DNA from: Aliivibrio fischeri ES114 | GTDB taxonomy: Bacteria; Pseudomonadota; Gammaproteobacteria; Enterobacterales; Vibrionaceae | DNA length: 24,000 bases | Assembly: GCF_000011805.1 (NCBI RefSeq) | Contig: NC_006841.2 | Reading direction: 5' to 3' (one strand) | In this document: in pieces, positions 352-24,000 of the stretch | How the letters are laid out: each line of letters starts with the position of its first letter | Numbering within the stretch: the first letter of the stretch is position 1 | Translations under genes and position numbers: made by a program | The notes under the pieces: generated by a model | The model's input: the letters and a program-made list of their open reading frames with translations, nothing else | Databases searched by the model: none | Told to the model about the DNA's origin: nothing

Positions 352-356
352 AAACT

Positions 357-7239: not shown

Positions 7240-7264
7240 GAAATTTCCTTTTCCTTTTTTGCAC

Positions 7265-7386: not shown

Positions 7387-7509
7387 AACGCTGCCAATAC
7401 TTTTCACCCATCCTATTAGGCATTGAGTATAAAGGATAATATCTATCACTATGCGACTTGAATTTTTTAAGGCATTCACACTAAATGATAGCTCAAAACT
7501 CTTTACCCT

Positions 7510-7881
7510 TTAGTAAAGTCTTTTTAGCCCTTCATCACAAGCATACATAGATTTTGAGTTGCCTTTATAGCCATAGTTCGTCTTATATTCCCATTTATAA
7601 CCAACATATCCACCATAGCTATTTTTCGCATTGTAACGAATGCAATATCCCTTATTTTCTTCAACTGGTTTCTTCACTGAAGGCTCCCAATATTGAAAGA
7701 TATCAGCAAACTTAGCGCTATCCGGATCTTTTAGTGATGATTTCAAATCATCTAATGCCTTTACAATTTCTATTGGTGGCTTAGACATATCAATCTTTTC
7801 ATATGTAAGGTTTTCACTAGAAGTCGACTTACAACCTAAAAGGGATAAAGTGAACATTACAACTAATATTAATTTCTTCAT
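7510..7881 (-). CDS. Lipoprotein of unknown function (123 aa)
   Basis: Signal peptide with lipobox MKKLILVVMFTLSLLGC. GGAGGA RBS 5 nt upstream. Confidence 0.75.
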   Translation of the reverse strand: MKKLILVVMFTLSLLGCKSTSSENLTYEKIDMSKPPIEIVKALDDLKSSLKDPDSAKFADIFQYWEPSVKKPVEENKGYCIRYNAKNSYGGYVGYKWEYKTNYGYKGNSKSMYACDEGLKRLY

Positions 7882-7961
7882 TGATTCCTCCGCTTAAAAT
7901 ATAAAGTATATGGTACCATATATTTCACTGAAGTCTATTATGCGCTACGACTACATGCGTT

Positions 7962-8082
7962 ATAACGCCTGCATAACACGTTTACTACCAAGCAATTATA
8001 CTTAAAATTGACGCATTAAAACGAGAAACACCCGACAACCTGAGATGCCGAGTGTAGTAAATCGTGTTGATGCAATTGTTAT
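7962..8082 (-). repeat. Integron attC site (cassette 1)
   Basis: ATAACGCCTGCATAACACGTTTACTAC...GTAGTAAATCGTGTTGATGCAATTGTTAT, 121 bp. The stop of the 8079 ORF lies inside its terminal core. Confidence 0.9.
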
Positions 8083-8504
8083 AACTCTTTCACTAAAAAG
8101 TACGTGGTATGCCCTTTCGGTGAATCATTTATTTCACCGTAGACTCTATAACCATTTTTTTCGTAAAACGGTTTCGCTTGAAAGTCTAAAGTTTCAGTTC
8201 GTATTTGTTGAAGTCCTTTTTCTTTTGAAAAAAGTTCAAGTTCAGTCATCAATTTGCTACCAATTCCAGAGCCTCTGGTTTCCTCTGATAGCCATAACAA
8301 CTCTAATACACAGTAACTCCAAACCACGCTAGCTTGAATCCCACCAATTATTTCGTTCTCATCATTTCGAGCAAAAAGAGCAAACCTAAAACCGGCATCA
8401 AACGAATCATCATTTGGAAGAAATTTTTCGTTAAAAGCAGAGATACCATCGCTTATTCTTTTAAGATCAGCATCCAAAGGCGACGTTGCTAATTCTATTT
8501 TCAA
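8079..8504 (-). CDS. GNAT family N-acetyltransferase (first cassette)
   Basis: 141 aa. Acetyl-CoA binding motif RGSGIGSKLM and C-terminal FYEKNGY. TTG start with GGAG 6 nt upstream. Confidence 0.85.
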   Translation of the reverse strand: MKIELATSPLDADLKRISDGISAFNEKFLPNDDSFDAGFRFALFARNDENEIIGGIQASVVWSYCVLELLWLSEETRGSGIGSKLMTELELFSKEKGLQQIRTETLDFQAKPFYEKNGYRVYGEINDSPKGHTTYFLVKEL

Positions 8505-8826
8505 AATTTACTCCATATTAAACTTAAAAAGTTATAACATTTAATTATACCCACCACATTCGTAATCTCTACTGAATATATTTCTGTACGTATAAACTCA
8601 ACATTCTATTTCAAAACCAATAACCTAGCACCTAAAACCACTGAAACTTCAAAAGAATTATACGTAATTGGTTCGTATATCTCACTTTTAGCCTTACATG
8701 CATGTAACTGATTAAATAGACAATTCCATCAAAATTTAATCAAACCTCCAAATATACGAACCCAAATTGAAACTCTAGTGAGGTGACTTACACTCAATAC
8801 ACCATTAACAACCACGAACAAAGCAA
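8505..8826. promoter_or_regulatory. attI recombination site plus divergent intI / cassette promoter region
   Basis: The minus strand AAATG|TTATAAC at 8531-8540 carries the same G|TTAT crossover core as every cassette junction. Four alternating CGTATA/TATACG motifs lie at 8589, 8659, 8674 and 8754. A possible PintI is TTGAAA-N16-TACACT (about 8768-8795). Exact attI limits and Pc were not determined. Confidence 0.6.
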
Positions 8827-9810
8827 ATGGATATCCCATTAGATCTTAAACCAGATTCACAACGCTTCACCGATCAACTTCGAATTTTCATTCGAACACG
8901 TGCGCTAGCCTATAATACAGAGAAACAATACATATATTGGATAAGTTGCTTTATTCGTCATAACAACTACACATCAAAAGACGAAATTAACGCCTTTGAT
9001 ATACCAGCCTACCTTGAGCACTTAGTCGTAAAACAGAACGTATCGCCAAATACCCAAAAAACCGCGTTAAACGCACTCATATTTTTATGTCGCGAATACC
9101 TACAACAATCAGTCGATAACCTTGAATTTAAACGTTCTAAAAAAGCCACTAAATTGCCAACTGTATTTACTCATGGTGAAGCCATCTCCGTTATAAATGA
9201 ACTTAACCACCCCACTAAGCTGATTGCACAACTTATGTATGGGAGCGGTTTACGAATAAACGAAGCATTAAGGCTAAGAGTAGATGACATCGATCTTATC
9301 CATAAAACCATCACCATAAGAAATGGGAAAGGTAATAAAGACAGGACTACTGTACTACCCGAGAGCATCATTCCAGAGCTTAAAACGCAACTCGAGTTTG
9401 TAAAACAACAACATAAAATGGATGCAATAAACGGGGATGATGAAGTTTATCTACCTAATGCCATTGCAAAAAAATACCCTCACAGAGCAAAAAGTTATGG
9501 TTGGCAATATGTGTTTCCTTCAAAACAGATCAGCAAAGATCCACGTTCAGGTCAGCATCGTCGACACCACATGTTAGATAGAAGCGTTCAAAAACAAGTA
9601 ACCAATGCAATAAAAAAACTTGAGATAGATAAGAAAGCCAGCAGCCACACATTTAGGCATAGCTTTGCGACACGAATTTTAGAACGGGGTGGAGATCTAA
9701 GGACAATACAAGAATTATTGGGTCATTCTGATATCAAAACGACCCAAATTTATACTCACGTAATAGGCTTACACTTCTCAGGAACGAAAAGCCCATTAGA
9801 CTTTGATTAA
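8827..9810 (+). CDS. intI: Integron integrase (tyrosine recombinase IntI)
   Basis: 327 aa. Catalytic blocks [25 protein letters not shown] and [15 protein letters not shown] (R-H-R-Y). It also has the IntI-specific additional segment [39 protein letters not shown]. The gene is divergent from the attC array. Confidence 0.95.
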
Positions 9811-9816
9811 CAATAG

Positions 9817-9990
9817 TTACATTTCATATTGGCGATGTTTTAGTGAATAGAAAATAGCTCTAATCGCTTTCGCCAAAAAGAAAACAGCAACAACAACAAA
9901 AAACTTACTAACAATAAAGCCCGGAGTTAAATAAGAAACAATCGCACAAAAAGCGCCAATTAAGGCCGATAACATCCACTCTTTTTGCAT
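9817..9990 (-). CDS. Small membrane protein (57 aa), below the ORF-track cutoff
   Basis: MQKEWMLSALIGAFCAIVSYLTPGFIVSKFFVVVAVFFLAKAIRAIFYSLKHRQYEM has two hydrophobic helices. Its ATG lies 2 nt after the HDOD stop (TAATCATG), suggesting coupling. No clear SD. Confidence 0.4.
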   Translation of the reverse strand: MQKEWMLSALIGAFCAIVSYLTPGFIVSKFFVVVAVFFLAKAIRAIFYSLKHRQYEM

Positions 9991-9992
9991 GA

Positions 9993-10817
9993 TTACACAA
10001 CTAATCGAGCCATTTCGACACCCGAACCTCTTACTTCATCAATGTGCTCAATCACATTCTCATTCACAAATAAAATATCCACTTCAATCTGCTCAGAAAG
10101 CCATACTTTTTTAGCATCACGTGTTTCAAGTTTATCCCATTCACGATTAATCGCATTCGCCAAACGAACCGTTGCTGCCAGTGGAGAATAAATGTTATCA
10201 ACTTTTGGTTCGTATTGTTCAGAAATAGCAAAAACCAACTCTTTAGAGAAACTCCAACTCTCAGCCAATTTAGCACCTAAAACTGCACTATCTGTATTGA
10301 TAGTTGAACGTTGTGCACTAACTTTCGATCTACCCGCTTCCATTTTCTCAAAGATCTCAGGAACTTTATCTGCCATAACAGTATAAATCATCAAATCACC
10401 GATGTTATGCAGCATACCCGCAGTAAAAGCGTCATTAGGGTTAACTGAACAACTTTCACCAATGGCTTTACTTAATACCGCAACTTCAAAAGTTTCTTGC
10501 CAAAAATTTTCTAGATCTATCACTTCAACATAAGGAAAAGCACTGACAAGCGAAGAAGCAATAATCAGAGTTTTAAGCGGTTCAAGACCTAAGCGTACAA
10601 CCGCTTGGTTAACTGATGATACGCTCTTACCACGCGAGAAATGCGCAGAGTTAGCCAAACGTAATACACGACCACTCACCACTTGCTCAAGCGAAATTGT
10701 TTTTGATAAATCTTGCAACTCAACGTCAGGATCATTTACCAATTCCATCATTTCACGGATCACTTTCGGAATTTTTGGTAACTCGTGAGCATGACTTAAA
10801 ATTTCATTTTGTTCCAT
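9993..10817 (-). CDS. HDOD domain-containing signalling protein
   Basis: The pattern LPKIPKVIREMMELVNDPDV...LSKTISLEQVVSGRVLRLANSAHF...LGLEPLKTLI...HNIGDLM is typical of HDOD. The ATG at 10817 has GGAGA 6 nt upstream and is preferred over the track TTG at 10835. Confidence 0.85.
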   Translation of the reverse strand: MEQNEILSHAHELPKIPKVIREMMELVNDPDVELQDLSKTISLEQVVSGRVLRLANSAHFSRGKSVSSVNQAVVRLGLEPLKTLIIASSLVSAFPYVEVIDLENFWQETFEVAVLSKAIGESCSVNPNDAFTAGMLHNIGDLMIYTVMADKVPEIFEKMEAGRSKVSAQRSTINTDSAVLGAKLAESWSFSKELVFAISEQYEPKVDNIYSPLAATVRLANAINREWDKLETRDAKKVWLSEQIEVDILFVNENVIEHIDEVRGSGVEMARLVV

Positions 10818-10839
10818 ATTCTTTCTCCACAACAAGTCG

Positions 10840-11265
10840 CTACTTTTTCTTTTTCATCACAGCCACAGTAAAGCGGCTTGTGCAGACTAAGCGGTCTCGT
10901 TGATCTTTAATATCAATCACCCAAACGTGGGTGGTTGCACCTAAATGTAAAGGCTTGGCCGTGGCGAAAACAGTTCCTTCACGTACAGCTCTAATATGGT
11001 TGGCATTTATCTCTAGACCAACACAATATTTTGATTCATCAACACACCAGTTTGCCGCGATAGAAGCAACAGACTCAGCTAATGCTACTGATGCTCCACC
11101 ATGAAGCATGCCTAATGGTTGGTGAACCGTTGAAGTCACAGGCATAGATGCAGTAATCGAATTATCATCATATGCGCAATATTCAATGCTTAACGCTTCC
11201 ATCAAGGTATTACGAGACGTCGTGTTTAAGACAGTTAAATCCATCTCACGTTTCCAAATACTCAT
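10840..11265 (-). CDS. Hotdog-fold acyl-CoA thioesterase (PaaI/YbdB family)
   Basis: Blocks LGMLHGGASVALAESVAS and HLGATTHVW. The ATG at 11265 (MSIWKRE...) has GGGAG 5 nt upstream. The track start at 11334 is probably an over-extension. Confidence 0.85.
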   Translation of the reverse strand: MSIWKREMDLTVLNTTSRNTLMEALSIEYCAYDDNSITASMPVTSTVHQPLGMLHGGASVALAESVASIAANWCVDESKYCVGLEINANHIRAVREGTVFATAKPLHLGATTHVWVIDIKDQRDRLVCTSRFTVAVMKKKK

Positions 11266-11409
11266 TTTCACTCCCAATGTAACCGTTAATATATATATCG
11301 ACAGTTTACACTCAACCTGTACGTTGAAAAACATATTTTCGCTTGTTGAACGCTTTTACTAACTGATAAACTTCACAAAAATATTTGGTTTAACTCATGT
11401 AGGATAACT

Positions 11410-12114
11410 ATGTTAAATAAAAGCATGATTACTAACTTGATTTCGTTAATCTTGTTAGGTATTGGTTATTACACGCAACAAAACACACTCTATTATATCG
11501 GCCTATTTGCTTTCTCTGGAGCATTAACAAACTGGCTTGCTATTCACATGTTGTTTGAAAAGGTTCCAGGTCTTTATGGTTCAGGGGTTATTCCTGCACG
11601 CTTTGAAGAGTTTAAAGCCAGCATTAAGCGTTTGATGATGGATCAATTTTTCACCAAAGCAAACGTAGATAAGTTTTTATCGAATGAGATGAGCTCTGTC
11701 ACTAACATTAATCTAGAGCCTGTGATTGATAAGATCGACCTTTCACCAGCTTTTGATTCTTTGGTTGAAGTGATCATGAACTCTCAATTTGGTGGCATGC
11801 TTGCGATGTTTGGTGGTCAAGAAGCCATTGATCCAATGCGTGAACCGTTTATTGAAAAAATGAAAGCATCAATTACTGAGATCAGTCAGCAAGAGCAGTT
11901 TAAACAAGCACTAAAAGAAGAGCTTGAAGCGCCAGAAATGATGGAAGACATTCAATCGACGATTGAGGATATTATTGACCAACGCCTAAATGAACTTACC
12001 CCTAAGATGGTGAAAGAAATGGTTCAGGATATGATCAAAAATCACCTAGGGTGGCTTGTAGTTTGGGGTGGTATTTTCGGCGGTGTTATCGGAATGCTTT
12101 CTACGCTAATTTAA
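11410..12114 (+). CDS. DUF445-like membrane protein
   Basis: 234 aa. N-terminal TMs carry TNWLAIHMLFEKVPG and the C-terminal TM carries WLVVWGGIFGGVIGML. AGGA RBS. The family name is from memory of the DUF445 pattern. Confidence 0.7.
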   Translation: MLNKSMITNLISLILLGIGYYTQQNTLYYIGLFAFSGALTNWLAIHMLFEKVPGLYGSGVIPARFEEFKASIKRLMMDQFFTKANVDKFLSNEMSSVTNINLEPVIDKIDLSPAFDSLVEVIMNSQFGGMLAMFGGQEAIDPMREPFIEKMKASITEISQQEQFKQALKEELEAPEMMEDIQSTIEDIIDQRLNELTPKMVKEMVQDMIKNHLGWLVVWGGIFGGVIGMLSTLI

Positions 12115-12166
12115 TCCATGCCAAGCTCTAAGATACCCAGGTTTTAAATACCAATGTCTTAGATAC

Positions 12167-12199
12167 AAAAATGCCAGCATTTATACGCTGGCATTTTTT
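12167..12199. terminator. Bidirectional intrinsic terminator between convergent genes
   Basis: AAAA-ATGCCAGC-atttatac-GCTGGCAT-TTTTT. The 8-bp stem is perfect, flanked by an A-run and a T-run. Confidence 0.75.
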
Positions 12200-12216
12200 A
12201 TGGATTCAATCTCAAA

Positions 12217-12417
12217 TTAATGGATTGGTGCGCTATCGTCAGCACTGAATTTACCAAAGTGCGCTTCAAGCACTTCTGGTGTTAACTCACCCGCTTCTTC
12301 AAGACGTTTTAGCTCAGCAACAATGGCTTTTTGCTCTTCAATTGATGGCAACGCTTCTTCTGGTTTATCAGCTTCTTGTTGAACCATTTCTTGAAGTTCT
12401 TTTTCAAAATCACTCAT
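12217..12417 (-). CDS. Small acidic hypothetical protein (66 aa)
   Basis: The ORF has helical, Glu-rich composition and ends just before the bidirectional terminator. The RBS is weak. Confidence 0.55.
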   Translation of the reverse strand: MSDFEKELQEMVQQEADKPEEALPSIEEQKAIVAELKRLEEAGELTPEVLEAHFGKFSADDSAPIH

Positions 12418-12800
12418 GATTATTTTCTCAATTCATAAAAACAATTAGAGGGATTCTACAAGAGAATAGAAACCAATTGCAATGATTGAGTATAAGTTAA
12501 TGATAATTAAATGATTTATATCAGACACTGAAGTGTGTGTGTATTTATATGCACAATTTATTTTACAATGATTTGAAGCCAATCGGCTTGTTTTGAGGAG
12601 AAGATAGAATAAAAAAAGGGCCGTAAATGTAATCCTTTGGCTCTAACTATCGAAATCGAAAAATGTGACAGCAAGCTTGCAACTAACGAACGTATAAACG
12701 AGATACATCAGTATATAATGCGTAATAGTCTCTTATGCCCCAAAAGTCAAAATAGTAACAACCATTCCAGTTATTGCTAACAGTGCATACATACGAGATT

Positions 12801-12917
12801 ATGCCTAGAATTGTTGGCAATGGGATCTGTAAGGCTGTAGGTATTGCCTCTGGCGTTGTAGCTGGTGGTGTTCGAGACAAGATCCAAAAGTGGCACATCA
12901 TCAGGCGGAAGCCATAA
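12801..12917 (+). CDS. Candidate 38-aa Gly/Ala/Val-rich membrane peptide with basic tail
   Basis: MPRIVGNGICKAVGIASGVVAGGVRDKIQKWHIIRRKP, found by hand translation. It is followed by a hairpin with a T-run at 12969-12996. The RBS is weak. It lies antisense to track ORF 12683-12901, which looks non-biological. Confidence 0.3.
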   Translation: MPRIVGNGICKAVGIASGVVAGGVRDKIQKWHIIRRKP

Positions 12918-12968
12918 CGGAAATAAAAGCTCTACTTCTTGTCTTGGGGCTTGCCACCAATAAAATAT

Positions 12969-12996
12969 AAAAAACCGCCGATAATGGCAGTTTTTT
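12969..12996. terminator. Terminator hairpin downstream of the wHTH gene (also usable from the plus strand)
   Basis: AAAAAACCGCC-gataat-GGCAGTTTTTT has one mismatch in the stem and A/T runs on both sides. It is near-identical to the hairpin at 13445-13470. Confidence 0.6.
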
Positions 12997-13001
12997 GTAT
13001 T

Positions 13002-13343
13002 TTATTTAAACCTTTTATTGAGAATTTCAACTAAATCACGGCCCTTTTCTGTCAGCTCTAAGTATTTAGTTCTATGGTCACTAGGCTCATATACCCAGCA
13101 ACAAATATCGTAACCTTTTCTATTTGGCCCAGCTCTGTCCGTTAGAACGCGGCAATGACGACTAGCGGAGGCTTGGGAAATTCCGAACCTCTCACATAAA
13201 TGATTAGCAGATACGGTAAGCGGCAAAGTAGACATAACTTCTAAAAATGCAACCATTTGCATAGGATGAATTTCATCATGAACCAATTCTCTAAATGCCA
13301 TGATGTTATCTGTAAAGGTTTTTATTTTTGTTCCTGAGATCAT
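13002..13343 (-). CDS. Winged-helix (MarR-like) transcriptional regulator
   Basis: 113 aa. The segment LCERFGISQASASRHCRVLTD fits a helix-turn-helix followed by a wing (KGYDICCWVYEPSDHRTKYLELTEKG). Confidence 0.7.
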   Translation of the reverse strand: MISGTKIKTFTDNIMAFRELVHDEIHPMQMVAFLEVMSTLPLTVSANHLCERFGISQASASRHCRVLTDRAGPNRKGYDICCWVYEPSDHRTKYLELTEKGRDLVEILNKRFK

Positions 13344-13444
13344 TGCCTTAACTCTTTTAAAAACGGATGTTTAAATTCTACATGGTCACTAATGAGAATG
13401 ATAGGCATTAGCAAAGACGAATCACTTACAACTAAACATACGTA

Positions 13445-13470
13445 CAAAAAACCGCCGGTAATGGCGGTTT
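13445..13470 (-). terminator. Rho-independent terminator
   Basis: The minus strand reads AAACCGCC-attacc-GGCGGTTT followed by TTTT. The 8-bp stem is perfect. Confidence 0.7.
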
Positions 13471-13550
13471 AGTCTATAAAACATATATTATTTTGGGATC
13501 ACCGAAAGGCATTAAGATGAAATAATCAACCATGATAGGCATCGCATAAA

Positions 13551-13736
13551 TTACGTGCCGCAAAAACTATAATTTAGAGGTATTATCGAAACAATTGTGA
13601 ATGCTAATAACGAATACCCTACAAACTGCCACTTATACAAATTCACCATTCCGATGAAATAAAGAAACAACGACAAAAGAACTATGAACGCCCAAAAATC
13701 AAAATCAAGCACAGCGTTACTCTGCGGTTTTTGCAT
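13551..13736 (-). CDS. Small two-TM hypothetical protein (61 aa)
   Basis: Two hydrophobic helices. It overlaps the upstream small ORF by 20 nt. No SD was seen. Confidence 0.3.
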   Translation of the reverse strand: MQKPQSNAVLDFDFWAFIVLLSLFLYFIGMVNLYKWQFVGYSLLAFTIVSIIPLNYSFCGT

Positions 13737-13872
13737 TCTGTTTTAACTTATCTAGTGCTTCGCCAACGGTAACAGAAATAAACTCCTTAGAATCATCGGA
13801 CAATGGTTCTTTGGTTTCCATTAATTGATTAATTACAGCCAATTTCGTTTCTATCGATAAATTATTATTCAT
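13717..13872 (-). CDS. Small hypothetical protein (51 aa from MNNNLS)
   Basis: GGGGAG RBS 4 nt before the ATG at 13872. The track start at 13908 lacks an RBS. Confidence 0.45.
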   Translation of the reverse strand: MNNNLSIETKLAVINQLMETKEPLSDDSKEFISVTVGEALDKLKQNAKTAE

Positions 13873-14287
13873 GTCACTCCCCTCTAAATAAGAATCATTC
13901 GTATACATTCACAAAAGCCACGCAAATTTATGTTATATAAAATAAAATTATAAGTGTTATTTATGCGATCAATGATTCCACAATTGATCATTTATATATT
14001 TTCATAACAATGTTACCCGTGCAAACTGGTTACAGTTCATCCTAAAAAAGGATTGTTATAAAAAAAGATTACATATAATGAAATATTATGCTTCGATAAG
14101 TTAAATTAAACACAACATAAAGTACAATTTTTAAATCAAGCCGCATATATGTTACGAAATCCTATAAGAACCCATTTAACTAAAAATACTAGAAACCATG
14201 ATATATCTAATGAAAATATCATCATGTCCACTGTTATTAGGAACAACGCTTATAATTTCAGTCATATTCCTAACCTATATTTAAGCT

Positions 14288-14785
14288 TCATTTCATTTCT
14301 TTTACTTTTTCGTATTGACTATTCAATATCTGCATAAGTTCTTTACTACCGCCAAAATCGGGATGAAATACTTTTGCAAGTAGCTTATACCTTGTACGAA
14401 TATTTTTTTGATTCACTTTACAGTCGAAATCAAAAAAAGAAATACCTAAGCAGCTAGAATCAACCGTTTCATTATGTAGGCGAACAAACTTTGCGGCCCC
14501 ACTTAGCGCTTCTGTCGCATCTTGGGCCATATCTAAAGCCTCTTTACGTTCAAGCGTAAGCGTTTCTATTCTCTTACGTAACTTATATTCATTCCCAGCG
14601 AGTGAACGTATGGTTTCATTTGCTCTATCCAATTCAGCATTAACAAAAGTGAAGTCAGAAAAACTAACACGGCACCGTTTTCGATTCCGAGTTAGCAATA
14701 ACAGAGCTACGGTTACCATTAAGACCACCACATAAAGCACACAACTATGTAAAAGAAAATTAATATATTCATTTGAAACAGTCAT
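14288..14785 (-). CDS. Membrane-anchored J-domain (DnaJ-like, DjlA-type architecture) protein
   Basis: N-terminal TM (CVLYVVVLMVTVALLLL), a coiled-coil middle and a C-terminal J-domain with IRTRYKLLAKVFHPDFGG (HPD motif). GAGGG RBS 8 nt upstream. Confidence 0.8.
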   Translation of the reverse strand: MTVSNEYINFLLHSCVLYVVVLMVTVALLLLTRNRKRCRVSFSDFTFVNAELDRANETIRSLAGNEYKLRKRIETLTLERKEALDMAQDATEALSGAAKFVRLHNETVDSSCLGISFFDFDCKVNQKNIRTRYKLLAKVFHPDFGGSKELMQILNSQYEKVKEMK

Positions 14786-14796
14786 AGATTAAGCCC

Positions 14797-14925
14797 TCAT
14801 ACCATTAAAATTACACAAATGCTTTCTAGCCTCTTCTTGTATTCTCTTTTTGTAAGAACCTCTATAGTATTCTTTAATACTTCCATAACTCTTCTAGGGA
14901 ACAAATCACATACCTTGCTAAACAT
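14797..14925 (-). CDS. Candidate 42-aa ORF immediately upstream of the J-domain gene
   Basis: MFSKVCDLFPRRVMEVLKNTIEVLTKREYKKRLESICVILMV. AGAGG lies 7 nt upstream, and the ORF ends 11 nt before the J-domain ATG. There is no comparative support. Confidence 0.25.
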   Translation of the reverse strand: MFSKVCDLFPRRVMEVLKNTIEVLTKREYKKRLESICVILMV

Positions 14926-15291
14926 CGTCATACCTCTTTAGATGTTTCTATTTCTTTTCTAATCCATTCAACATTCTCACTCCTTTGAACGTATTGTGTT
15001 ATCAATTCACAAACCTAAATGTATTCACTTTTTAATTTTAGAAAGCTTTGATTTCTTAGCCATATATGATCTATCTCAGTACAATACGTACCTATAAAAT
15101 CATATACAGAGCTTTTAATACTCCTATATCGCACTCTTGATAAAGACCGTACCTAATTCAAATCAGCCACCTAATTTGTACTAAAGTTGTTGGTTATTTG
15201 ATCTACCTTGTTTTTATTGAAAACTATATAGTTCTTTACTATATTTCAATACATACAATAAATCTGCGTAAATACGGGGTCTGTTATTGGT

Positions 15292-15345
15292 GCCACAACG
15301 CCCTTTTTGGGTTGGGCCAGTTGTTCAGGGCGTAGTGGGCTTTTT
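15292..15345. terminator. Long imperfect hairpin abutting the TonB-dependent receptor stop codon
   Basis: GCCACAACGCCC (15292-15303) pairs imperfectly with GGGCGTAGTGGGC (15328-15340). The T-run is on the plus strand only, so its role in terminating the minus-strand operon is uncertain. Confidence 0.3.
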
Positions 15346-15346
15346 C

Positions 15347-17485
15347 TTAGAACTCGTACTGTGCTGATAGCATATAGTTACGGCCCTCGCCGATACTCAT
15401 ACCAGAGTAATCACCACTTGTTTCATACTCTTTATCAAATACGTTGTTAATCTTAGCTCTGAATGAAAGCTCATCACCTGAATCCATAGGCATACGATAA
15501 ATAGCACCTACATCCGCCAAGGTGTAAGCCGATTTCTTTGGCTCATCATTGGCGCTATTACCGTAACGCGAACCAATGTAATAAACACCAGCATTCAGAT
15601 CGATATGGTCTGTTAACTCATAGTTAGCCCATGCGTTAGCCGTCCATTGTGGAACGTCTGCTATTTTCTTACCGTCATACTTCGGCTGGCCCTCATATTC
15701 AGCAATTAAGTACTGCGCACCAGCCTTAACAGTTAATAACTCTGTCACACGACCCGTGATTGTTGTATCAATACCTGTATTAATCTGTTTGCCGCCCTGC
15801 TCTGTTTTCTTGGTGATAGCTGGATTATTTGGATCACGATACTTTCTATCAGTAACTGAAATGTTTTCTTTCACTATCTGGAATAAAGACGTTTCAAATA
15901 TAGCGCTGTTATCCATGAACTCCTGTTTATAACCAATCTCATATAAATGGCCTAGCTCTGGTTCACGTTCCATTCCATCGTTCGCATCGCTTGAACTACT
16001 AATAGGCGTTTGAGGAACAAACGATTGTGAGTAACTAGCGTATATTGTTGAGTCAGCGGATGGATGGAACATAACCGCAGCACTTGGCAAGACGTTGAAA
16101 TATTCAGTATCTTCGCCTTTGCCGTCTCTCTTATCATTCTTAGAACGATATTTGATGTAGTAATCGGCACGAGCACCAGCTAGAACTTGCCAGTAGTCAT
16201 TAAACGTTATCAAATCTTGTACATATAAGCCTGTTTGGAAATTAGAATAAACGTTAGAACTTGGCTTACCTGATTTACTTGGATCAAATCCGTAAATTGG
16301 TGTCGCAGGGTTAGTACTTGCGGCCTGCTTAACACCACCGTATAAACTGTTACGTGAATACTCATGATCTACAAAGTTGGTGCCAACAAGCAACTTATGC
16401 TCAATTGAACCTGTATTAAAGTCACCCGTTAGATCCATAGTACCTGTATGAACATCATAACTATTATCACGCTTACCAGTATTAAACTCGTACTTACCTG
16501 TTTGAGCACTATCTTTCATTGGTCTAATGCTTGAAGTCTTAGCAGTATTAACCATATTCAACTTGTGATAGCTTGCCGTTAACTTCCAGTCATTATCAAA
16601 GTGGTGCGTTAGCTTAACGCCAATGCTTTCCTCTTCTTTCTCATTGGTTGACCAAGGTGTATTAAGAATTAAATCACGGTCGCCAATAATGTTGCCGTCT
16701 TCATCAAAGTAAGCGCCACTATCTTGGTGCCCTTTTTGCGTCTTGTAATCATAAGATAGCGATAACATCGTGTCGTCTGTCAGATCATAATCAAGCATGA
16801 TTGCCAATAAATCACGGCGTGTAGTTGGATGAACGCCATTAACGTAGTGTCTAAAGTTATCTTTTGATTGTTTTGAGGCAATTACACGATAACGTAAATC
16901 GTCCGTTGCGGAACCTGTAGTATCCACCACTGAACGCGAAAAGTTATTACTACCAACATCTTGAGAAATCATAGTGCGGCGCTGGTATTCAGGCTCTTTT
17001 GTTACCATGTTCACCAATCCTGCTGGTGAACCTTTACCATAAAGAAGACCTGACGGGCCTTTTAGCACTTCAATTCGCTCATACATTTCTACAGGTTCTT
17101 GAATAAGGGAATATTTCTGCTCACCATTACGCAAATAACCATCGTTAGTAGTTAACTGGAAACCGCGAATATAAAAGTTTTCGTGTCCGTCGCTTTCATA
17201 AGTAGAAACGGTTGAGGCATCGTTCTTAAGCGCTTTATCAAGTGAGGTCGCCTGTAAATCATCAAGTAACTTTCTATCAATGCTATTTACAGAACGTGGG
17301 TTCTCAAGCGGTGCAATATCCATTTTAGTCGCAGTGCTTACGGATTCAGTTTTATAATCTGGGCGTGTACCTACAACCTCAATGGCTTCAAACGTAGAAA
17401 CATTATCTGTATCAGCAAAAGATTTAACGGGCGATAATGACGCAGCAATAGCAATAGCAAGAGTGGTTAATTTAGTTTTGGTCAT
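15347..17485 (-). CDS. TonB-dependent (siderophore-type) outer membrane receptor
   Basis: 712 aa. Signal peptide ...SPVKSFA|D, a TonB-box-like STFEAIEVVG, plug motifs (IEVLKGPSGLLYG) and a C-terminal barrel ending NNVFDKEYE...YMLSAQYEF. Confidence 0.95.
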   Translation of the reverse strand: MTKTKLTTLAIAIAASLSPVKSFADTDNVSTFEAIEVVGTRPDYKTESVSTATKMDIAPLENPRSVNSIDRKLLDDLQATSLDKALKNDASTVSTYESDGHENFYIRGFQLTTNDGYLRNGEQKYSLIQEPVEMYERIEVLKGPSGLLYGKGSPAGLVNMVTKEPEYQRRTMISQDVGSNNFSRSVVDTTGSATDDLRYRVIASKQSKDNFRHYVNGVHPTTRRDLLAIMLDYDLTDDTMLSLSYDYKTQKGHQDSGAYFDEDGNIIGDRDLILNTPWSTNEKEEESIGVKLTHHFDNDWKLTASYHKLNMVNTAKTSSIRPMKDSAQTGKYEFNTGKRDNSYDVHTGTMDLTGDFNTGSIEHKLLVGTNFVDHEYSRNSLYGGVKQAASTNPATPIYGFDPSKSGKPSSNVYSNFQTGLYVQDLITFNDYWQVLAGARADYYIKYRSKNDKRDGKGEDTEYFNVLPSAAVMFHPSADSTIYASYSQSFVPQTPISSSSDANDGMEREPELGHLYEIGYKQEFMDNSAIFETSLFQIVKENISVTDRKYRDPNNPAITKKTEQGGKQINTGIDTTITGRVTELLTVKAGAQYLIAEYEGQPKYDGKKIADVPQWTANAWANYELTDHIDLNAGVYYIGSRYGNSANDEPKKSAYTLADVGAIYRMPMDSGDELSFRAKINNVFDKEYETSGDYSGMSIGEGRNYMLSAQYEF

Positions 17486-18501
17486 ATTTTTTTGCCTTTT
17501 AAGGTTAAATTCGAGTTTTCTTCTAAAGAGAAAATTTCTATTTGCATTTCAAAAGCGCGTAGGCGCTTGTAAATTGACATTAACTCGACACAGCTCGACC
17601 ATCGGCGGATTAGGAACCTTAAGGAACTCTCAACCTTTGAGTATGATGAAGTGATTTGCTTCAACACTCCCAAGGTAATCGCCGCTTGTAATATTGTTGG
17701 ACTCATAAAAATGTAAACGGTAAGTTCCGAATACTTGCTATATGCACTTGAACAGCTATCAAACCAAAGATAAGCACGATACATACTAAAATAGTTGTGG
17801 CGCACATCATCAAACAGTTCTTTTAAGCCTTTCGGTGTAGCTCGGCTTTCATCATCTTCCCCTAAAACTAATTCTTTCCTGAATGCCGCCTCTACTTTTT
17901 GGTTGTTGTATTCATAAGCTGGTAATTTCCTACCAATGAACATTAAAAACGCGATTCCACCGAATGAGGAAACAACGGCAACGATAACCATTGAATGTTC
18001 AACCCCACCAAAGAACGGGATCACCTTTACGTGCTTGGATAGTTCCCACAACAACGGGATAAACGTCGCTAGTGTCATGAAATTCCTAAGAATGCTTATT
18101 CCTAAGTCTTCAACCAGCTTTGCAAACCTCATTGTGTCTTCTTGTATCCTCTGACTTGCTCCTTCGATTTGACGAATTAAAGGCCAGTGCTTTGTATAGT
18201 GCTCGTTCATGGCGCAACGCCACCTAAAGATCCAGTGCCTTACGAAGTAATCAACCACCACAGAAATAACGACGTACATAGTTGTGATCTTAAAAAAATC
18301 AAAAATAACATTTCTAAAATCAACAAACTTGACGGCATTGGGAGAAACTAACGCCTCTTGGATAAGATCATAAAAATGACCGTTCCAGTAGTTAAGTTCC
18401 ACATCAATACCGACTCTGAACCAATTAACAGCAACCACCGCAGTAGTGCCGTAAATTGACCAAAAGAACCATTTTCTATTTAAAAAGAAACAACGAAACA
18501 T
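17482..18501 (-). CDS. SbmA/BacA family inner-membrane peptide transporter (TMD-only, no ATPase domain)
   Basis: Colinear with E. coli SbmA as I recall it: YWNGHFYDLIQEAL, HWIFRWRCAMNEHY, IEGASQRIQEDTMRFA, NQKVEAAFRKELVLGEDDESRATP and CVELMSIYKRLRAFE. The ATG at 18501 (MFRCFF, GAGG 9 nt upstream) is preferred over the TTG at 18516. Its stop overlaps the receptor start (ATGA). Confidence 0.88.
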   Translation of the reverse strand: MFRCFFLNRKWFFWSIYGTTAVVAVNWFRVGIDVELNYWNGHFYDLIQEALVSPNAVKFVDFRNVIFDFFKITTMYVVISVVVDYFVRHWIFRWRCAMNEHYTKHWPLIRQIEGASQRIQEDTMRFAKLVEDLGISILRNFMTLATFIPLLWELSKHVKVIPFFGGVEHSMVIVAVVSSFGGIAFLMFIGRKLPAYEYNNQKVEAAFRKELVLGEDDESRATPKGLKELFDDVRHNYFSMYRAYLWFDSCSSAYSKYSELTVYIFMSPTILQAAITLGVLKQITSSYSKVESSLRFLIRRWSSCVELMSIYKRLRAFEMQIEIFSLEENSNLTLKGKKI

Positions 18502-18544
18502 AAGCGATAACCTCAATTAATAAAGTTACCTTTTATTGCTTTTA

Positions 18545-18688
18545 TTAGTTTTTAATAATCACTGGTTCCATACGAAATAAACGATTATCCCATTGCTGGT
18601 AATCACTGACCTTTGAATCAGACGTATAAGCCACCGCACAACTGAGCAAGGCCAATGTCATAAGAGCTATAATTAAGGCAACTTTCAT
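18545..18688 (-). CDS. Mini-lipoprotein (47 aa), below the ORF-track cutoff
   Basis: MKVALIIALMTLALLSCAVAYTSDSKVSDYQQWDNRLFRMEPVIIKN has a signal peptide with an LLSC lipobox. GGAG lies 8 nt upstream. It fills the gap between the OMP and SbmA-like genes. Confidence 0.5.
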   Translation of the reverse strand: MKVALIIALMTLALLSCAVAYTSDSKVSDYQQWDNRLFRMEPVIIKN

Positions 18689-18733
18689 TTTAAAAACTCC
18701 GTGTATATAAATTGATAGTAAAGATTTATGGAC

Positions 18734-19288
18734 TTAGAACTTAACGCCAAGCATTAAGCTGGAAATAGTAGAATCAACGTAGTAATCATCTGCTATTTCT
18801 ATATCAGCTCTCTTAATATCAATAGAAAGAGTCACTTTATCGTTAAACTCGGCACGGATACCAAGCCCTTTAGCGAAGCTGATAACTGAAAAATCGTGAC
18901 GCTGCCAATAATCTGTATAACCAAGAATATTATTCTCAATACCAACCATTACATACGGCTTTACGCTTACAGCATTGTTAAGGTCAAATCTATAACCAAA
19001 CTCAGGATAAGCGCCAAAGGTGCCAATCTCGCCAGTAACACCCGTCGCCAGCAATTCGTGACGAGCATAACGTGCAGAGATCCCCACTATCTTATTTATC
19101 TCTTTATGAACACCGATAGCGAAACCATTGCCATTAGCACTAGCGTCGTCATGAGACGAAAATCCCACACGGCCCACCATAACAGTAACGTCGTTTCGTG
19201 TAGCTGGTTCTTCCTCAGCTGAAAATGCTGGTGAAGATACGAATAATGCTAACGCCAACGGCGCTAATTTAGATTTGTACATGGTCAT
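18734..19288 (-). CDS. Small outer-membrane beta-barrel protein (OmpX/OmpW-size)
   Basis: 184 aa. Signal peptide ...SSPAFSA|E, alternating hydrophobic beta-strand pattern and a terminal aromatic residue (GVKF). Confidence 0.78.
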   Translation of the reverse strand: MTMYKSKLAPLALALFVSSPAFSAEEEPATRNDVTVMVGRVGFSSHDDASANGNGFAIGVHKEINKIVGISARYARHELLATGVTGEIGTFGAYPEFGYRFDLNNAVSVKPYVMVGIENNILGYTDYWQRHDFSVISFAKGLGIRAEFNDKVTLSIDIKRADIEIADDYYVDSTISSLMLGVKF

Positions 19289-19527
19289 ACCTTATTACTT
19301 TTTGACTCTTGTCCATCAAGTATCATCAATTTAGTTGTGTACTTGTGGGTTAGTGTTGCTCTAATGAGTGCGGAGATCATTTGCCTGTCTCTAATCCACC
19401 ACTTATTTAATAAATCACGGCTATAGCGAGACTTTTCAGCTAAGTCAGATATAGACAAATCAAGTTTCTTAAGATGATTAGCTAAACTAACTTTCTTAAA
19501 AGTCGTTACCTCATAGCTGTTATCCAT
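19285..19527 (-). CDS. Small putative HTH DNA-binding protein (80 aa)
   Basis: The segment LSISDLAEKSRYSRDLLNKWW looks like a helix-turn-helix. Its stop overlaps the OMP start (ATGA). It is the first gene of the minus-strand operon. Confidence 0.5.
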   Translation of the reverse strand: MDNSYEVTTFKKVSLANHLKKLDLSISDLAEKSRYSRDLLNKWWIRDRQMISALIRATLTHKYTTKLMILDGQESKSNKV

Positions 19528-20294
19528 CGCACATCATTAACCCGAACAGTGCGAATACTATTGCCAAATGACACGAATAGCAACAACAAACTCAAATTAG
19601 AACAAAAAAGGAGCGCAATCGACACATGAAAGACAAAATAAGCATCGATAGAGTCATTACTGTGAGGTATAAGAAAATCCATTACGAAATGCTATTTACT
19701 TTAAATTCAAAAGATAATTGTTGCGGATAGTGTCCATCATCCTGTTAATCGCCCCCCCCATTTCGTACGGCAATAACCCTTAATACAAATTCATGACATA
19801 GTTGAGCCTCAATGATAAGGCAAGCTCCGCCCTTGCTTGTAAATGCTACTTTACATAGGCTCAGTGAAGTATAGCGATTTGTAACCAAGCACATCACGGT
19901 AAAGAATTTCTACGGTATCGAGTAAAATTTCTATTTTTGTACTTCCCTTCACTATACTTTTTAGTTATGAGCACCGTGCAAGAAAGCCGATTTCCAGAGG
20001 ACAGAAATTTCTTTTCGATTTTGTGCCACATAAAAAAGCACAAACTAAATAGATGATCTTTACTATCCATCAAAAATTTACTCAACTGAAAAATAAAATG
20101 GCTACTTCAGAGCAAAAATCACTGTTCAGATCACTAAATGATGATAATAAATTATCTGGGTTATGTGTTTATGAACAGAACGATTAGAAATGACACGATT
20201 GATTCAGTGTCCTGTTTGATGATGCAAGTAGATGCTGTAGAATTAGGCAGTAAAACAAGACAAAAATTTTAATAAAACTGTATAAGGTTCGACC

Positions 20295-20945
20295 ATGAAG
20301 CAAAAGTCTATACTCGCTCGTAATATCGAACAGCGAAAATATGATCTAGGGATCACTACTAACATTGAAGTAGCACGTAAATCAGGTGTTAGCCGAGCGG
20401 TCATTACAAATATTGGACTACACCCAAATAAAAGTATCATGTTGGACAGTGCTGTACTTCTAGCTAAGGCTCTTGATTGTCGGCTTGAATGGTTAGCAAC
20501 TGGTGAGGGGCCTATTAACCTTGATGATGTAGAAAGATACAACCGTTTACGTTACGGGGCCGTTGTAATTCGTACGTCAGAACTTGAATCATTGACACCA
20601 GAAGAACTTTTAAAGGAACTTTACGACGATCAAAGCCGTGAACGAGTTCCGTGCCCTGCTGGTAATAGTTTTACAACATTCATCGTTAGATTGAATCAAG
20701 ATCTTGGAAAATATGCTGCAGGTGGAATGATGTATTTCGACTATGAAAAGACACCAATAACAGGATCTATTGTTCTGGCTAAAACTGCGAAAGATGCAGC
20801 ACCAGAAATCATGGAATACACAAAGGCACACAATAGATCGTTCTTAAAATCGTTAAGTGAAGATTTACCAGCGGAATTAAAATTTATAGAAATTACAGAA
20901 GAAATGGCAATCATTTCAACTTTAACGGCTTACGCTATCACTTAA
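20295..20945 (+). CDS. CI/LexA-like repressor (XRE HTH + S24 peptidase-like C-terminal domain)
   Basis: The N-terminal part has ARKSGVSRAVITNI and LEWLATGEGP, typical of phage CI-like repressors. The C-terminal part has AGNSF (compare lambda CI GNSM), GSIVLAK and a downstream Lys (EYTK). Confidence 0.82.
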   Translation: MKQKSILARNIEQRKYDLGITTNIEVARKSGVSRAVITNIGLHPNKSIMLDSAVLLAKALDCRLEWLATGEGPINLDDVERYNRLRYGAVVIRTSELESLTPEELLKELYDDQSRERVPCPAGNSFTTFIVRLNQDLGKYAAGGMMYFDYEKTPITGSIVLAKTAKDAAPEIMEYTKAHNRSFLKSLSEDLPAELKFIEITEEMAIISTLTAYAIT

Positions 20946-20971
20946 TAAGCATACAAAAGTTTAGCCACCAC

Positions 20972-21000
20972 AAAGCCCCGTTTCTAAGGGGCCTTCTTTT
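20972..21000 (+). terminator. Weak intrinsic terminator after the repressor gene
   Basis: GCCCC-gtttctaa-GGGGC followed by CTTCTTTTTT. Confidence 0.45.
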
Positions 21001-21195
21001 TTATCTCATGGAACTGAAACTGATAAAAAATCTTTTTTAATATTGCATGTAGTTCACTTTATTGCACTGAACTATTATCGCATGCTCCGTTCAGATTAAA
21101 ACCGTACAAATGAATTTAAAAAAACGTAATCTTTAAAATGCTTATGGATTAGTATGAACAATATGAAAAATGAATACTGCAAGTAAAACTGTTTC

Positions 21196-21216
21196 GGGGT
21201 TCCACAAGAGAACCCC
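21196..21216 (-). terminator. Hairpin downstream of the MCP gene
   Basis: GGGGTTC-cacaaga-GAACCCC forms a 7-bp stem 27 nt after the MCP stop. On the minus strand the T-run (TTTT) is set 7 nt away, so this is a moderate call. Confidence 0.4.
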
Positions 21217-21242
21217 TCAAAAGGTAAACCTAAAGCCGTCAG

Positions 21243-23156
21243 TTAGACTTTAAAAGCACCAACTAATTGATCCAATCGCTGTGAAAGTGCATTCAATTGC
21301 TGACTTGAATCAGCAAGCTCTTGTGCTGTGGCGGTGGTTAACTCATTAATACCATTAATCTCTTCGATATTTTGGTTAATCGTATAAACCACAGTAGATT
21401 GCTCTTCTGTTGCCGTTGCCACTTGCGTATTCATATCAGAAATATCTGTGATACTTTTTGCAATACCCGCTAACACTTGTGTTGCACTGTCTGCGGATTC
21501 AACACCACGAGCCGTTACACTGTGACTTGCTTCCATCGCATCCACCGCATTTTTCGCTTCGTTTTGCAGTTGATCAATCATCTTCTGGATTTCATCCGTT
21601 GATTCTGATGTACGGCTTGCTAATTGACGAACTTCATCTGCAACCACAGCAAAACCACGACCATGATCACCAGCACGAGCGGCTTCAATGGCTGCATTTA
21701 ACGCAAGTAAATTGGTTTGCTCTGAAATACCACGAATAACGTCAAGGATAGAGCCAATGTCTTGTGTTGTACCCGCTAATTGCTCCACCACATGGCTCAC
21801 TTGAACTAAATCACCTTCAAGTTGGGTAATTGCGTCACGAGAGTCAATCACAGTTTGACGACCATCTTGAGTACTTGCTTCAGCTTTACTTGCTGATTGT
21901 GCTGCATTCGCCGCATTGGATGCAATTTCGTTAATCGTACTACCCATTTGGTTAATAGCCGTTACGACTTGAAGCGTTTGGTCACGCTGCATTTCACTGT
22001 TATCACGTGTTGATGTTGCTTTTAACGCTACATTTTCAGCCGTAGTGTGTAATACATGGCCAGTTTCAACCACTTCAGAAACCGTATTGTGAATTTTCTC
22101 GACAAAACTATTAAAGCCTTTTGAAAGTTCCGTAATTTCATCATTACCTTTCACTTCGATACGATGCGTTAAGTCACCTTCCCCCTCACCTAGCTCTTTA
22201 AAGCGATGTGCAAGTTCGTTCAGTTTATTAGTGATTGAGCCTGCGCCCCAAATAGCTAAAGAGACAAATACCGCAATAATAACCACAATCCACATAATGA
22301 TGTCTTGGGTAGAGGCATGCAAACTTTCAAACACTTCAGAAACCGGTACTTCAGCAACAATAAACCACTCCATTGAAGGAATGTAATGCGAAGCGATAAA
22401 GATCTCTTGGCCACCTTTTTCCATGCGGCTTAGATTGAAGTTTTTCTTTGTCAGTAATACCGATGCTTCAGCAGAACCAACCACATCTTTAATGGTTTGC
22501 TTGCCCATAATCGCTTTGTTTTTATGGATTTTGATATTACCGTCACCATCCATTAAATAAACAAAACCCGTTTGTTCAATTCTAAATCCATTTAACAAAG
22601 CAACCATATCATCTAATGATTTAGATAAACCGGCCATTGAAACGCCATTTAGCTGTTGGAAATTAACAAACAGTTTTACTTCACCGTTTTGCTCAGTAAA
22701 TACATTCAACATACGCTCAGGGCCACTTTGTGTGAACCCAAAAAACCAACCGTCTTGTTGTTTGTTTAGTTGACGTAAAAAGCCATCCTGATTCCAATAA
22801 TTTGCTGTTTGACGGTTAGCAACGGATGCATCATTCAGATTATGTTGTTGTTTTAGTTTATTTAATTGACCAATAAGAACATTTTGGTCTTCAGGAGAGG
22901 TGTAAGAATCAGAAATAGCATCGATAATGAAAGGGTTATTAGACATTTGCTCAGCAGCAGCAGAAAGTACTGCCACCTCTTTATCTACTTCTCCACCAAT
23001 TCGGTCAAGAATAGTAGGAAGCTCAAGCGTGGTTAGCCTTTCATCTAAAGTTTCATACGCTTTTTTTTGGGCGACAATACCCACAAGAGAAGTTGAAGCA
23101 ATGATAGCGATAACGATACCGGCGACGAGTTTCTGTTTTATTGTTAGATTAATCAT
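21243..23156 (-). CDS. Methyl-accepting chemotaxis protein (periplasmic Cache-like sensor, HAMP, MA domain)
   Basis: 637 aa. Two TMs flank a ~270-aa sensor domain. A HAMP region follows, then the highly conserved signalling hairpin [35 protein letters not shown]. Confidence 0.95.
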
Positions 23157-23348
23157 AATTTTTCCACAGCTAAAATAGACCCTTCATATAACGACCGCAC
23201 ATTTCATAACTTTAATAAATAATTAGAAAAACATTCATTAATTAAATAGTTGAATAATTTCGAACTAAACCCAATCTTATTAGGAACTAATGTGGCTTTA
23301 TTGAGTCACAGACAATAATTACTAAACAATCCAGACATTGGGTGAACT

Positions 23349-24000
23349 ATGCTAGCGTTAAAAATTCAACAATTACAAACTTACCTTGAATCTCAAGTCA
23401 TTGGTCAACCAGATTTAGTAAAGCAGTTATTAATTGCCCTACTTGCAGATGGTCATATTTTAGTTGAAGGTCCTCCGGGTCTTGCAAAAACGCGTGCAGT
23501 TAAAATTTTGGCAGACTCTATTGAGGGAGATTTCCACCGTATTCAATTCACTCCTGACTTATTGCCATCAGACTTAACCGGTACCGATATTTACCGTCAA
23601 GAGACCGGTGAATTTACGTTCCAACCGGGCCCTATTTTCAACTCATTAGTATTGGCTGATGAAATCAACCGTGCGCCAGCCAAAGTCCAAGCGGCGATGT
23701 TAGAAGCCATGGCTGAAAAACAAATCACAGCGGGTCGAAATACCTATCAACTGCCTGAGCTATTCTTAGTAATGGCAACGCAAAACCCGATTGAACAAGA
23801 AGGGACTTACCCACTACCAGAAGCGCAGCTTGACCGTTTCTTAATGCATTTGGATGTGGATTACCCTGGCGCACAAGACGAACTAGCCATTCTGCGTTTA
23901 AATCGTGGTGAAGCCTTGGGTGAGCAAGCACAAAGACCACAACCATTAGCACAAAGTGAGATTTTCAGTGCTCGTAAAGAAGTGTTATCCATTTACATGG
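23349..24000 (+). CDS. MoxR-like AAA+ ATPase (3' end outside window; absent from the ORF track)
   Basis: Hand translation gives [48 protein letters not shown] (Walker A) ... [22 protein letters not shown] (Walker B) ... [25 protein letters not shown]. The frame is open to the window end. Confidence 0.9.

Follow-up and report, generated by a model that had tools for sequence, protein, structure and literature searches.

We analysed a 24,000-nucleotide stretch of Aliivibrio fischeri ES114 DNA (contig NC_006841.2; the whole stretch is called the window here), in which five open reading frames (ORFs) on the minus strand encode, in gene order, an 80-aa protein, a small outer-membrane beta-barrel protein, a 47-aa protein, a short SbmA/BacA-like permease and a TonB-dependent receptor (TBDR). 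We propose that the last two genes form an import cassette that operates independently of a binding protein, draws its energy from TonB and the proton gradient, most likely takes up an iron chelate, and is carried here as phage cargo; we put the probability of this reading at roughly 0.6. The TBDR, which is of the siderophore-receptor type, would bind the ligand and move it across the outer membrane into the periplasm with TonB energy, and the permease would then carry it across the inner membrane on the proton gradient, with no binding protein involved. The permease is presumably a homodimer of a six-helix core that has neither TM0 helices nor an ATPase. The ligand would most likely be an iron chelate, either a xenosiderophore or a peptide-like metallophore, since chromosomal copies of the cassette lie behind near-consensus Fur boxes and the receptor falls in a siderophore-receptor subfamily.

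The initial annotation of this region, made from the sequence alone, described all five genes as one operon for import. All five ORFs are present, and the two 4-nt ATGA overlaps that it reported, one between the 80-aa and barrel genes and the other between the permease and TBDR genes, are real according to both coordinates and sequence. Its identification of a beta-barrel protein, an SbmA/BacA-like transporter and a TBDR agrees with matches to the Pfam families OMP_b-brl (1e-29), SbmA_BacA (6e-154), and Plug together with TonB_dep_Rec_b-barrel; as it had stated, neither a periplasmic binding protein nor an ATP-binding cassette (ABC) ATPase is found in the island that holds the genes (Table 1). 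Two gene starts were refined. The permease ORF spans 17482-18516, and we place its real start at the ATG at 18501 rather than at the upstream TTG, because this is precisely where the homology with four other loci sets in; just five further open codons lie upstream of this ATG. Database entries give the barrel protein 182 aa, counted from a second ATG that lies 6 nt further downstream. The region had also been called AT-rich and accessory-looking. The first description does not fit, since the operon has a G+C content of 39.7% versus 36.8% for the window, whereas the second does, since the island is absent from congeners. No riboswitch or other RNA family was matched in the window, and a route controlled by a cobalamin or thiamine riboswitch was dropped on this ground.

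Table 1. Features of the island and its borders, with positions in the window
Feature	Positions	Strand	Basis or remark
Left 17-bp direct repeat (att-like)	12450-12466		15/17 match to 21196-21212
8.7-kb strain-specific island, a deleted prophage remnant	12467-21195		Empty site in 13/13 congeners
MarR-like winged-helix regulator gene, in island	13002-13343	-	MarR_2 sub-threshold; phrog_9665 (transcriptional regulator) 4e-11
165-aa phage backbone gene	14288-14785	-	82% protein identity to intact-prophage gene
TBDR, siderophore-receptor type, 712 aa, cassette gene 2	15347-17485	-	TIGR01783 298 bits, Plug + barrel
Short SbmA/BacA-like permease, 339 aa, cassette gene 1	17482-18501	-	PF05992 6e-154, NF009036 475 bits
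47-aa ORF, signal peptide + ~26-aa mature peptide, probable phage backbone	18545-18688	-	Kept in sister prophage
Small outer-membrane beta-barrel protein, 182-184 aa, probable phage backbone	18734-19288	-	PF13505 (OMP_b-brl) 1e-29
80-aa protein, possibly Cro/C1-type helix-turn-helix, probable phage backbone	19285-19527	-	Sub-threshold helix-turn-helix matches
Remnant of 174-aa phage gene and deletion junction to repressor-proximal region	19770-19929	-	Matches L097 9051-9293
CI-like phage repressor, 216 aa	20295-20945	+	Phage_CI_repr 2e-5, phrog_4 5e-9
Right 17-bp direct repeat	21196-21212		Matches left copy 15/17

The permease-receptor cassette

The permease matches the SbmA_BacA profile over its full length (positions 1-315 of 315). 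It passes the cut-off of the NCBIfam family NF009036, "putative transporter" (385 bits), an uncharacterised family of ~326 aa that as a whole has no nucleotide-binding domain (NBD), and with 402 bits it stays under the curated cut-off of the SbmA equivalog NF008306 (492 bits). It aligns without gaps to residues 77-400 of E. coli SbmA at ~50% identity and keeps the equivalents of SbmA E193, E203 and E287, the latter two being E131 and E215 of the permease. E203 and E287 set SbmA-like transporters, which are proton-coupled, apart from ABC transporters of the YddA type (PMC13316013). The first 72 residues of SbmA have no counterpart in the permease (the alignment begins at SbmA residue 73-77); SbmA and BacA have peripheral TM0a and TM0b helices (PMC13316013), and we infer that these helices are what the missing residues represent. 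The permease gene is the sole PF05992 member of this genome, and among the genomes searched a short permease of this kind occurs in this genome alone within the genus; two congeners have ~569-aa ABC-type relatives.

We considered whether the permease instead supplies the membrane part of an ABC transporter that is split between genes, with the ATPase gene at another place in the genome. In favour of this are a weak ABC_membrane_2 match and the existence of split YddA-type systems (PMC13316013). However, we found no ABC_tran match in the permease, and its stop codon overlaps the TBDR start; because the gene has no ATPase domain and ends in this overlap, we consider a split transporter exceedingly improbable. 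The absence of an NBD throughout NF009036, at a family length close to that of the permease, argues in the same direction, as do the conservation of E203 and E287, which are absent from YddA, and the lack of any other PF05992 gene or partner gene in the island.

The TBDR exceeds the TIGR01783 cut-off of 223.5 bits, with E-values of 3e-18 for the Plug domain and 2e-48 for the barrel. Its closest relatives of solved structure, FpvA, FetA, FauA, CntO, FoxA and FhuE, are all receptors for siderophores or metallophores, and its nearest named relative is PeuA (36% identity). At the N-terminus, judged by eye, a signal peptide with a hydrophobic leader ending in Phe-Ala is followed by the motif Glu-Ala-Ile-Glu-Val-Val-Gly, which resembles a TonB box. 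An N-terminal signalling domain is absent.

We surveyed the neighbourhood of the permease at the best 80 of more than 580 family loci, taken from one scan of species genomes. A TBDR of this type lies directly downstream of the permease at two of these 80 loci. The remaining 78 permeases are at most 54% identical and have no such receptor; what lies next to them depends on the lineage and for the most part has no relation to transport, and the idea that the whole permease family is receptor-coupled was rejected on these grounds. By contrast with the permease family at large, TBDR orthologues of at least 62% identity form a small group in which every member has the permease immediately upstream. 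The pair occurs, permease first, in Vibrio sp. LaRot3, Photobacterium kishitanii, a genome of the same order (G024), GCA_001557935.1, a 106-kb plasmid of Photobacterium damselae, and a prophage of another A. fischeri strain that we call the sister prophage. Identity to the window copy at the non-prophage loci is 79-90% for the permease and 62-74% for the TBDR; with the sister prophage included, the ranges extend to 79-99% and 62-98%. A P. angustum receptor that is 46% identical has no permease beside it.

At none of the best 80 permease loci did we find the genes for the barrel, 47-aa or 80-aa proteins, and all three are absent from the other non-prophage cassette loci. Homology between cassettes begins at the permease ATG and ends at the TBDR stop codon. 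Since homology spans exactly these two genes, and since the pair recurs without the small genes, the alignments indicate that the conserved unit is a two-gene permease-TBDR cassette and not a group of five genes. Hence the part of the initial annotation that coupled a TBDR to a permease without an ATPase stands, with the pairing seen in at least six other replicons, whereas the part that made the three small proteins components of the system is not supported: synteny is conserved for the pair, and the five-gene set recurs in a single sister prophage of the same species.

Elsewhere, the surroundings of the cassette vary. A Peripla_BP_2 gene, an iron-linked neighbour that speaks for our reading, is found near the P. 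kishitanii cassette. On the P. damselae plasmid (CP021153.1; L103) the cassette occupies 6989-10121, beside Rep3, ParA and H-NS-like genes, and this layout recurs on a second plasmid-like contig (L104), in the vicinity of an IS91-family transposase. In P. kishitanii, on the P. damselae plasmid and in G024, the receptor gene is succeeded by a conserved third gene of ~147 aa, its copies (L002:9193-9630, L103:10164-10607, L104:6499-6945 and L082:4681-5127) being 56-69% identical. The product has no Pfam family, no signal peptide and three invariant Cys; its motifs recall small phage HNH/AP2-like DNA-binding proteins, to which it may be similar. Vibrio sp. LaRot3 and GCA_001557935.1 lack this gene, as do the window and the sister prophage.

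Cargo in a deleted prophage

The island that carries the five genes is strain-specific. In 13 of 13 genomes of the same genus, DNA matching window positions 8800-12466 directly abuts that matching 21196-24000, and the uninterrupted site of a 97%-identical congener has one copy of the 17-bp sequence, versus the two that flank the island. The sole homologue of the barrel protein led to the sister prophage, in A. fischeri GCA_021394745.1, where the five genes lie inside a complete prophage at the same chromosomal site. This prophage has genes for an integrase, a methyltransferase, a CI-like repressor, a replication protein, a P22-type portal, a capsid, an SU10-type adaptor and a tail, and its integrase gene adjoins the same chemoreceptor gene. 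Compared by blastn, segments of the island are collinear with the intact prophage at 81-95% identity and are separated by large deletions. Missing from the island are the integrase block, early genes amounting to ~3.7 kb, a stretch of ~6 kb beyond the receptor and, over the part of the intact prophage compared, the structural genes. The loss of the early genes follows from two adjoining segments, since 19922-21095 matches L097 4117-5306, whereas 19770-19929 matches the distant L097 segment given in Table 1. At this deletion, the gene that diverges from the repressor breaks off after its first few codons and runs into what is left of the gene preceding the 80-aa ORF; the cluster now lies ~400 bp downstream of the divergent promoter region that the repressor controls.

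Further along the island, DNA at 14154-15155 matches the intact prophage at 84%; it contains the gene for the 165-aa membrane protein, which in the prophage lies upstream of putative terminase genes. The leftmost 1.7 kb (12467-14154) had no match in the compared parts of the intact prophage. A plasmid origin of the island was also considered, and was rejected for want of any megablast match in PLSDB. Taken as a whole, these alignments indicate that the setting of the cluster is a deleted prophage remnant with cargo.

The two A. fischeri copies allowed us to compare the history of the cassette with that of its surroundings; all values of divergence, of synonymous divergence (dS) and of the ratio of nonsynonymous to synonymous divergence (dN/dS) given here are for the window copy versus the sister prophage. 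Over the whole five-gene cluster, DNA identity is 95%, and this average conceals a marked boundary. Divergence is ~10% from position 19584 to the stop codon of the 47-aa ORF, where there is a sharp break; it falls to ~2% over the permease and receptor, and rises again past the receptor stop. Because dS is 0.065 for the permease and 0.098 for the TBDR, whereas the barrel gene has 0.30, the 47-aa ORF 0.60, the CI-like repressor 0.53 and the 165-aa gene 0.29, the cassette has a separate and more recent shared history than the surrounding phage backbone. Both cassette genes are also under strong purifying selection (dN/dS 0.04 for the permease and 0.09 for the TBDR). The repressor, 94% identical in protein sequence to that of the intact prophage with a dN/dS of 0.07, is the retained repressor of the decayed prophage, and the gene is still under selection.

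By the same comparison, the small upstream genes behave largely like phage backbone. The barrel gene has a dN/dS of 0.20, and its product has a single non-self homologue among 5.8 billion proteins searched, namely the sister-prophage copy, which is 88% identical. The 80-aa gene fits the division between backbone and cassette poorly: its overall dS is 0.16 and its dN/dS 0.54, the 5' part being highly diverged and the last 100 bp nearly identical. Its product had been annotated as a helix-turn-helix protein, an identification that we could not confirm. It has no family in Pfam, NCBIfam or PHROG, the hints of a Cro/C1-type domain are sub-threshold (HTH_3 with E=0.1; HTH_26 with E=0.016 in one homologue), and an exhaustive HMMER search of 1.8 billion representative proteins found three small homologues alone. 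AlphaFold predicts one long helix, with five models that disagree and a predicted local distance difference test score that ranges from 49 to 86. Sequence and profile searches of the PDB with the barrel protein and the 80-aa protein returned nothing significant.

The 47-aa ORF is coding, since it is retained in the sister prophage, as 46 aa, with a dN/dS of 0.23. Its product, which has a signal peptide and no match in Pfam, NCBIfam or PHROG, had been taken for a lipoprotein. Comparison with its sole orthologue speaks against this: Leu-Leu-Ser-Cys here is Leu-Leu-Ser-Leu there, so the lipobox Cys is missing there, whereas a signal-peptidase-I site between Ala-Val-Ala and Tyr is conserved in both. 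Because the Cys is not conserved and the cleavage site is, a small secreted peptide is the more likely product.

These data bear on the alternative that all five genes constitute one dedicated import machine, with the small barrel, 47-aa and 80-aa proteins as working partners. The genes share a strand, are separated by 0-45 bp with two start/stop overlaps and no convincing terminator between them, and hence may be co-transcribed; moreover, two diverged prophages have kept the whole set intact, with purifying selection acting on each of the five. Nevertheless, the small genes are absent from six other cassette replicons and from 80 family loci, they diverge like phage backbone with the break falling at the stop codon of the 47-aa ORF, and the barrel and 80-aa proteins are near-orphans. 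We therefore regard a five-gene machine as distinctly unlikely.

Our preferred reading, in which the two-gene cassette is phage cargo, suggests the following sequence of events. A mobile cassette would have been picked up in A. fischeri by a temperate P22/SU10-like phage and inserted downstream of three phage-backbone genes, those for the 80-aa protein, the barrel and the small secreted peptide. The prophage in the window has lost its integrase, replication and structural genes, and what is left of it includes the CI-like repressor and all five genes of the cluster in intact form. Retention of the cluster in such a remnant suggests domestication of useful cargo, from which the host bacterium would benefit.

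Prophage carriage could also mean that the cluster serves the phage, by superinfection exclusion or by receptor remodelling. Small phage lipoproteins are known to block FhuA, and lambda lom and bor are outer-membrane cargo genes; the small barrel and the exported peptide encoded here resemble this classic type of phage cargo, and the cluster does lie inside a prophage. Yet the pair also occurs on chromosomes and on a plasmid with no phage genes nearby, in the chromosomal cases apparently under Fur control. Exclusion would not need a complete receptor and an inner-membrane importer, and nothing is better conserved than this pair in a remnant that has lost the capacity to produce phage. We judge a phage-serving role to be highly improbable. 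The cassette pair was not found in genuine sequenced phages in INPHARED or IMG/VR: the INPHARED matches were rejected as mislabelled host contigs or short transduced fragments of <60% identity, and IMG/VR gave one match, of 39% identity, on a 347-kb contig.

To the left of the island, positions 1-9810 of the window hold a chromosomal integron. Its integrase (Phage_integrase with a SAM-like N-terminal domain) is encoded at 8827-9810 on the plus strand, and the small minus-strand cassette genes upstream of it include those for a CPT-like kinase, an ASCH protein and a YycE/glyoxalase-like protein.

Fur boxes and the imported substrate

We scored Fur sites by their mismatches to the 19-bp consensus, using 20,000 shuffled 300-bp stretches as background. 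Each of the three chromosomal cassette copies has a site with two mismatches, 25-55 bp upstream of the permease start; no shuffled stretch contained a two-mismatch site, and seven contained a site with three. Among the 79 family loci with enough upstream sequence, just two have a site of this quality, and both have this type of receptor; the other 77 have sites with at least five mismatches. Together with the subfamily of the receptor, these boxes are the basis for favouring an iron chelate as the ligand.

Several observations weigh against this interpretation. The P. damselae plasmid copy has a five-mismatch site at the equivalent position. The initial annotation had suggested a Fur box upstream of the cluster as a check, and the search there returned chance-level sites alone: across 1.8 kb of the window (18481-20300) the best site has 6-7 mismatches, and the sister prophage has nothing better. 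Because these two copies have no Fur box and the plasmid site is a poor one, iron control of the cassette is not universal. The TBDR scores far under every substrate-specific NCBIfam cut-off, and the characterised substrates of SbmA and BacA are all peptides or peptide-like drugs rather than siderophores (PMC13316013). As for the limits of the functional unit, the presence of all five genes, together and intact, in two diverged prophages allows for a role of the three small genes.

The regulatory discrepancy would be accounted for if Fur control is a property of the chromosomal cassette that was lost from, or never present in, the phage-borne version. With no Fur box upstream of any of the five genes, expression in the window would not be directly Fur-dependent. 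The best Fur-box-like site in the window, with four mismatches, lies at 13394-13412, ~50 bp upstream of the MarR-like gene; 80 of the 20,000 shuffled 300-bp stretches scored equally well or better. This site could link the island to iron.

The alternative substrate class is peptides, that is, antimicrobial peptides of the host or of competitors, or peptide nutrients, with the permease in a BacA-like role in chronic host association and the TBDR as the outer-membrane gate. A. fischeri is a symbiont, the permease is ~50% identical to SbmA over the whole core, and the known substrates of SbmA and BacA are peptides (PMC13316013). On the other side, the Fur boxes of the chromosomal copies are confined to the TBDR-linked subclade, and the receptor is in a siderophore-receptor subfamily; we think peptide import as such unlikely. 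A peptide siderophore as ligand would fit both readings in part, and a peptide-like metallophore would reconcile the case for iron with the peptide substrates described for SbmA and BacA.

The import of an iron chelate, which we favour, lends itself to a wider scenario that we put forward tentatively and regard as somewhat doubtful. A temperate phage would spread a binding-protein-free import route for iron chelates among marine Vibrionaceae, the TBDR-linked, Fur-controlled subclade would reveal a natural substrate class of SbmA-type transporters, and the symbiont would have domesticated the cargo for iron competition.

Relation to known transport systems

The components of the cassette are all of known kinds; siderophore permeases outside the ABC class are familiar, as are cargo genes in phages. 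What appears to be new is an SbmA-like permease joined to a siderophore-type receptor, with Fur boxes on chromosomes and with mobility on a plasmid and a phage. In the literature searched, coverage of which was partial, we found no description of such a pairing, and nothing relevant on the P. damselae plasmid copy or on A. fischeri prophages with TonB genes.

The permease resembles E. coli SbmA and Sinorhizobium BacA (PDB 7P34 and 9G3D) in having no NBD, in keeping E193, E203 and E287, and in its gapless alignment to SbmA. It differs from SbmA in lacking the N-terminal 72 residues, in scoring under the SbmA equivalog cut-off and over that of NF009036, and in being translationally coupled to a TBDR, with a Fur box in its relatives; E. 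coli sbmA is not adjacent to fhuA. The proposed route, a siderophore-type TBDR followed by an SbmA-type permease with no binding protein, is that by which microcin J25 enters E. coli through FhuA and SbmA. There, however, the genes are unlinked and a toxin parasitises the route, whereas here they form one conserved mobile cassette. Conservation of a mobile TBDR-permease cassette implies that it has been selected, and hence that the two proteins share a natural substrate. To our knowledge, the known substrates of SbmA-type transporters are hijacking ones alone, such as microcins, Bac7 and bleomycin. A minimal SbmA-like subclade that travels with a siderophore-type receptor thus points to a substrate that is natural and selected.

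The E. coli yddA-yddB-pqqL locus likewise joins a TBDR gene to one for an inner-membrane transporter of this superfamily, but that transporter carries an ATPase domain; the cassette has no ATPase domain and no M16 protease, neither of which is encoded in the island. The initial annotation had drawn the yddA/yddB parallel, and it is an apt one. In Aeromonas sp. RU39B, an Enterobacterales metagenome-assembled genome and an Endozoicomonas metagenome-assembled genome (L011, L021 and L023), a short SbmA-like gene without an ATPase lies directly downstream of a gene for a ~950-aa M16 peptidase, accompanied by a divergent Plug-domain receptor of ~870 aa. This layout appears to be a yddB-pqqL-yddA-like one in which a secondary transporter replaces the ABC transporter.

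FptA/FptX, FoxA/FoxB, RhtA/RhtX and LbtU/LbtC are Fur-controlled siderophore routes with a single permease. Like the cassette, they combine a TBDR with one non-ABC permease and use no binding protein; unlike it, their permeases have major facilitator superfamily/AmpG-like or PepSY-type folds rather than an SbmA-like one. Finally, the cassette in the window is comparable to the lambda lom and bor morons, in that host-type envelope genes are carried by a temperate phage and retained in a decaying prophage. It differs from them in that the cargo is a complete two-membrane import route of ~3.2 kb. The cassette therefore adds a full import pathway across two membranes to the cargo that temperate phages can carry, and provides a clean example of cargo kept during prophage decay.

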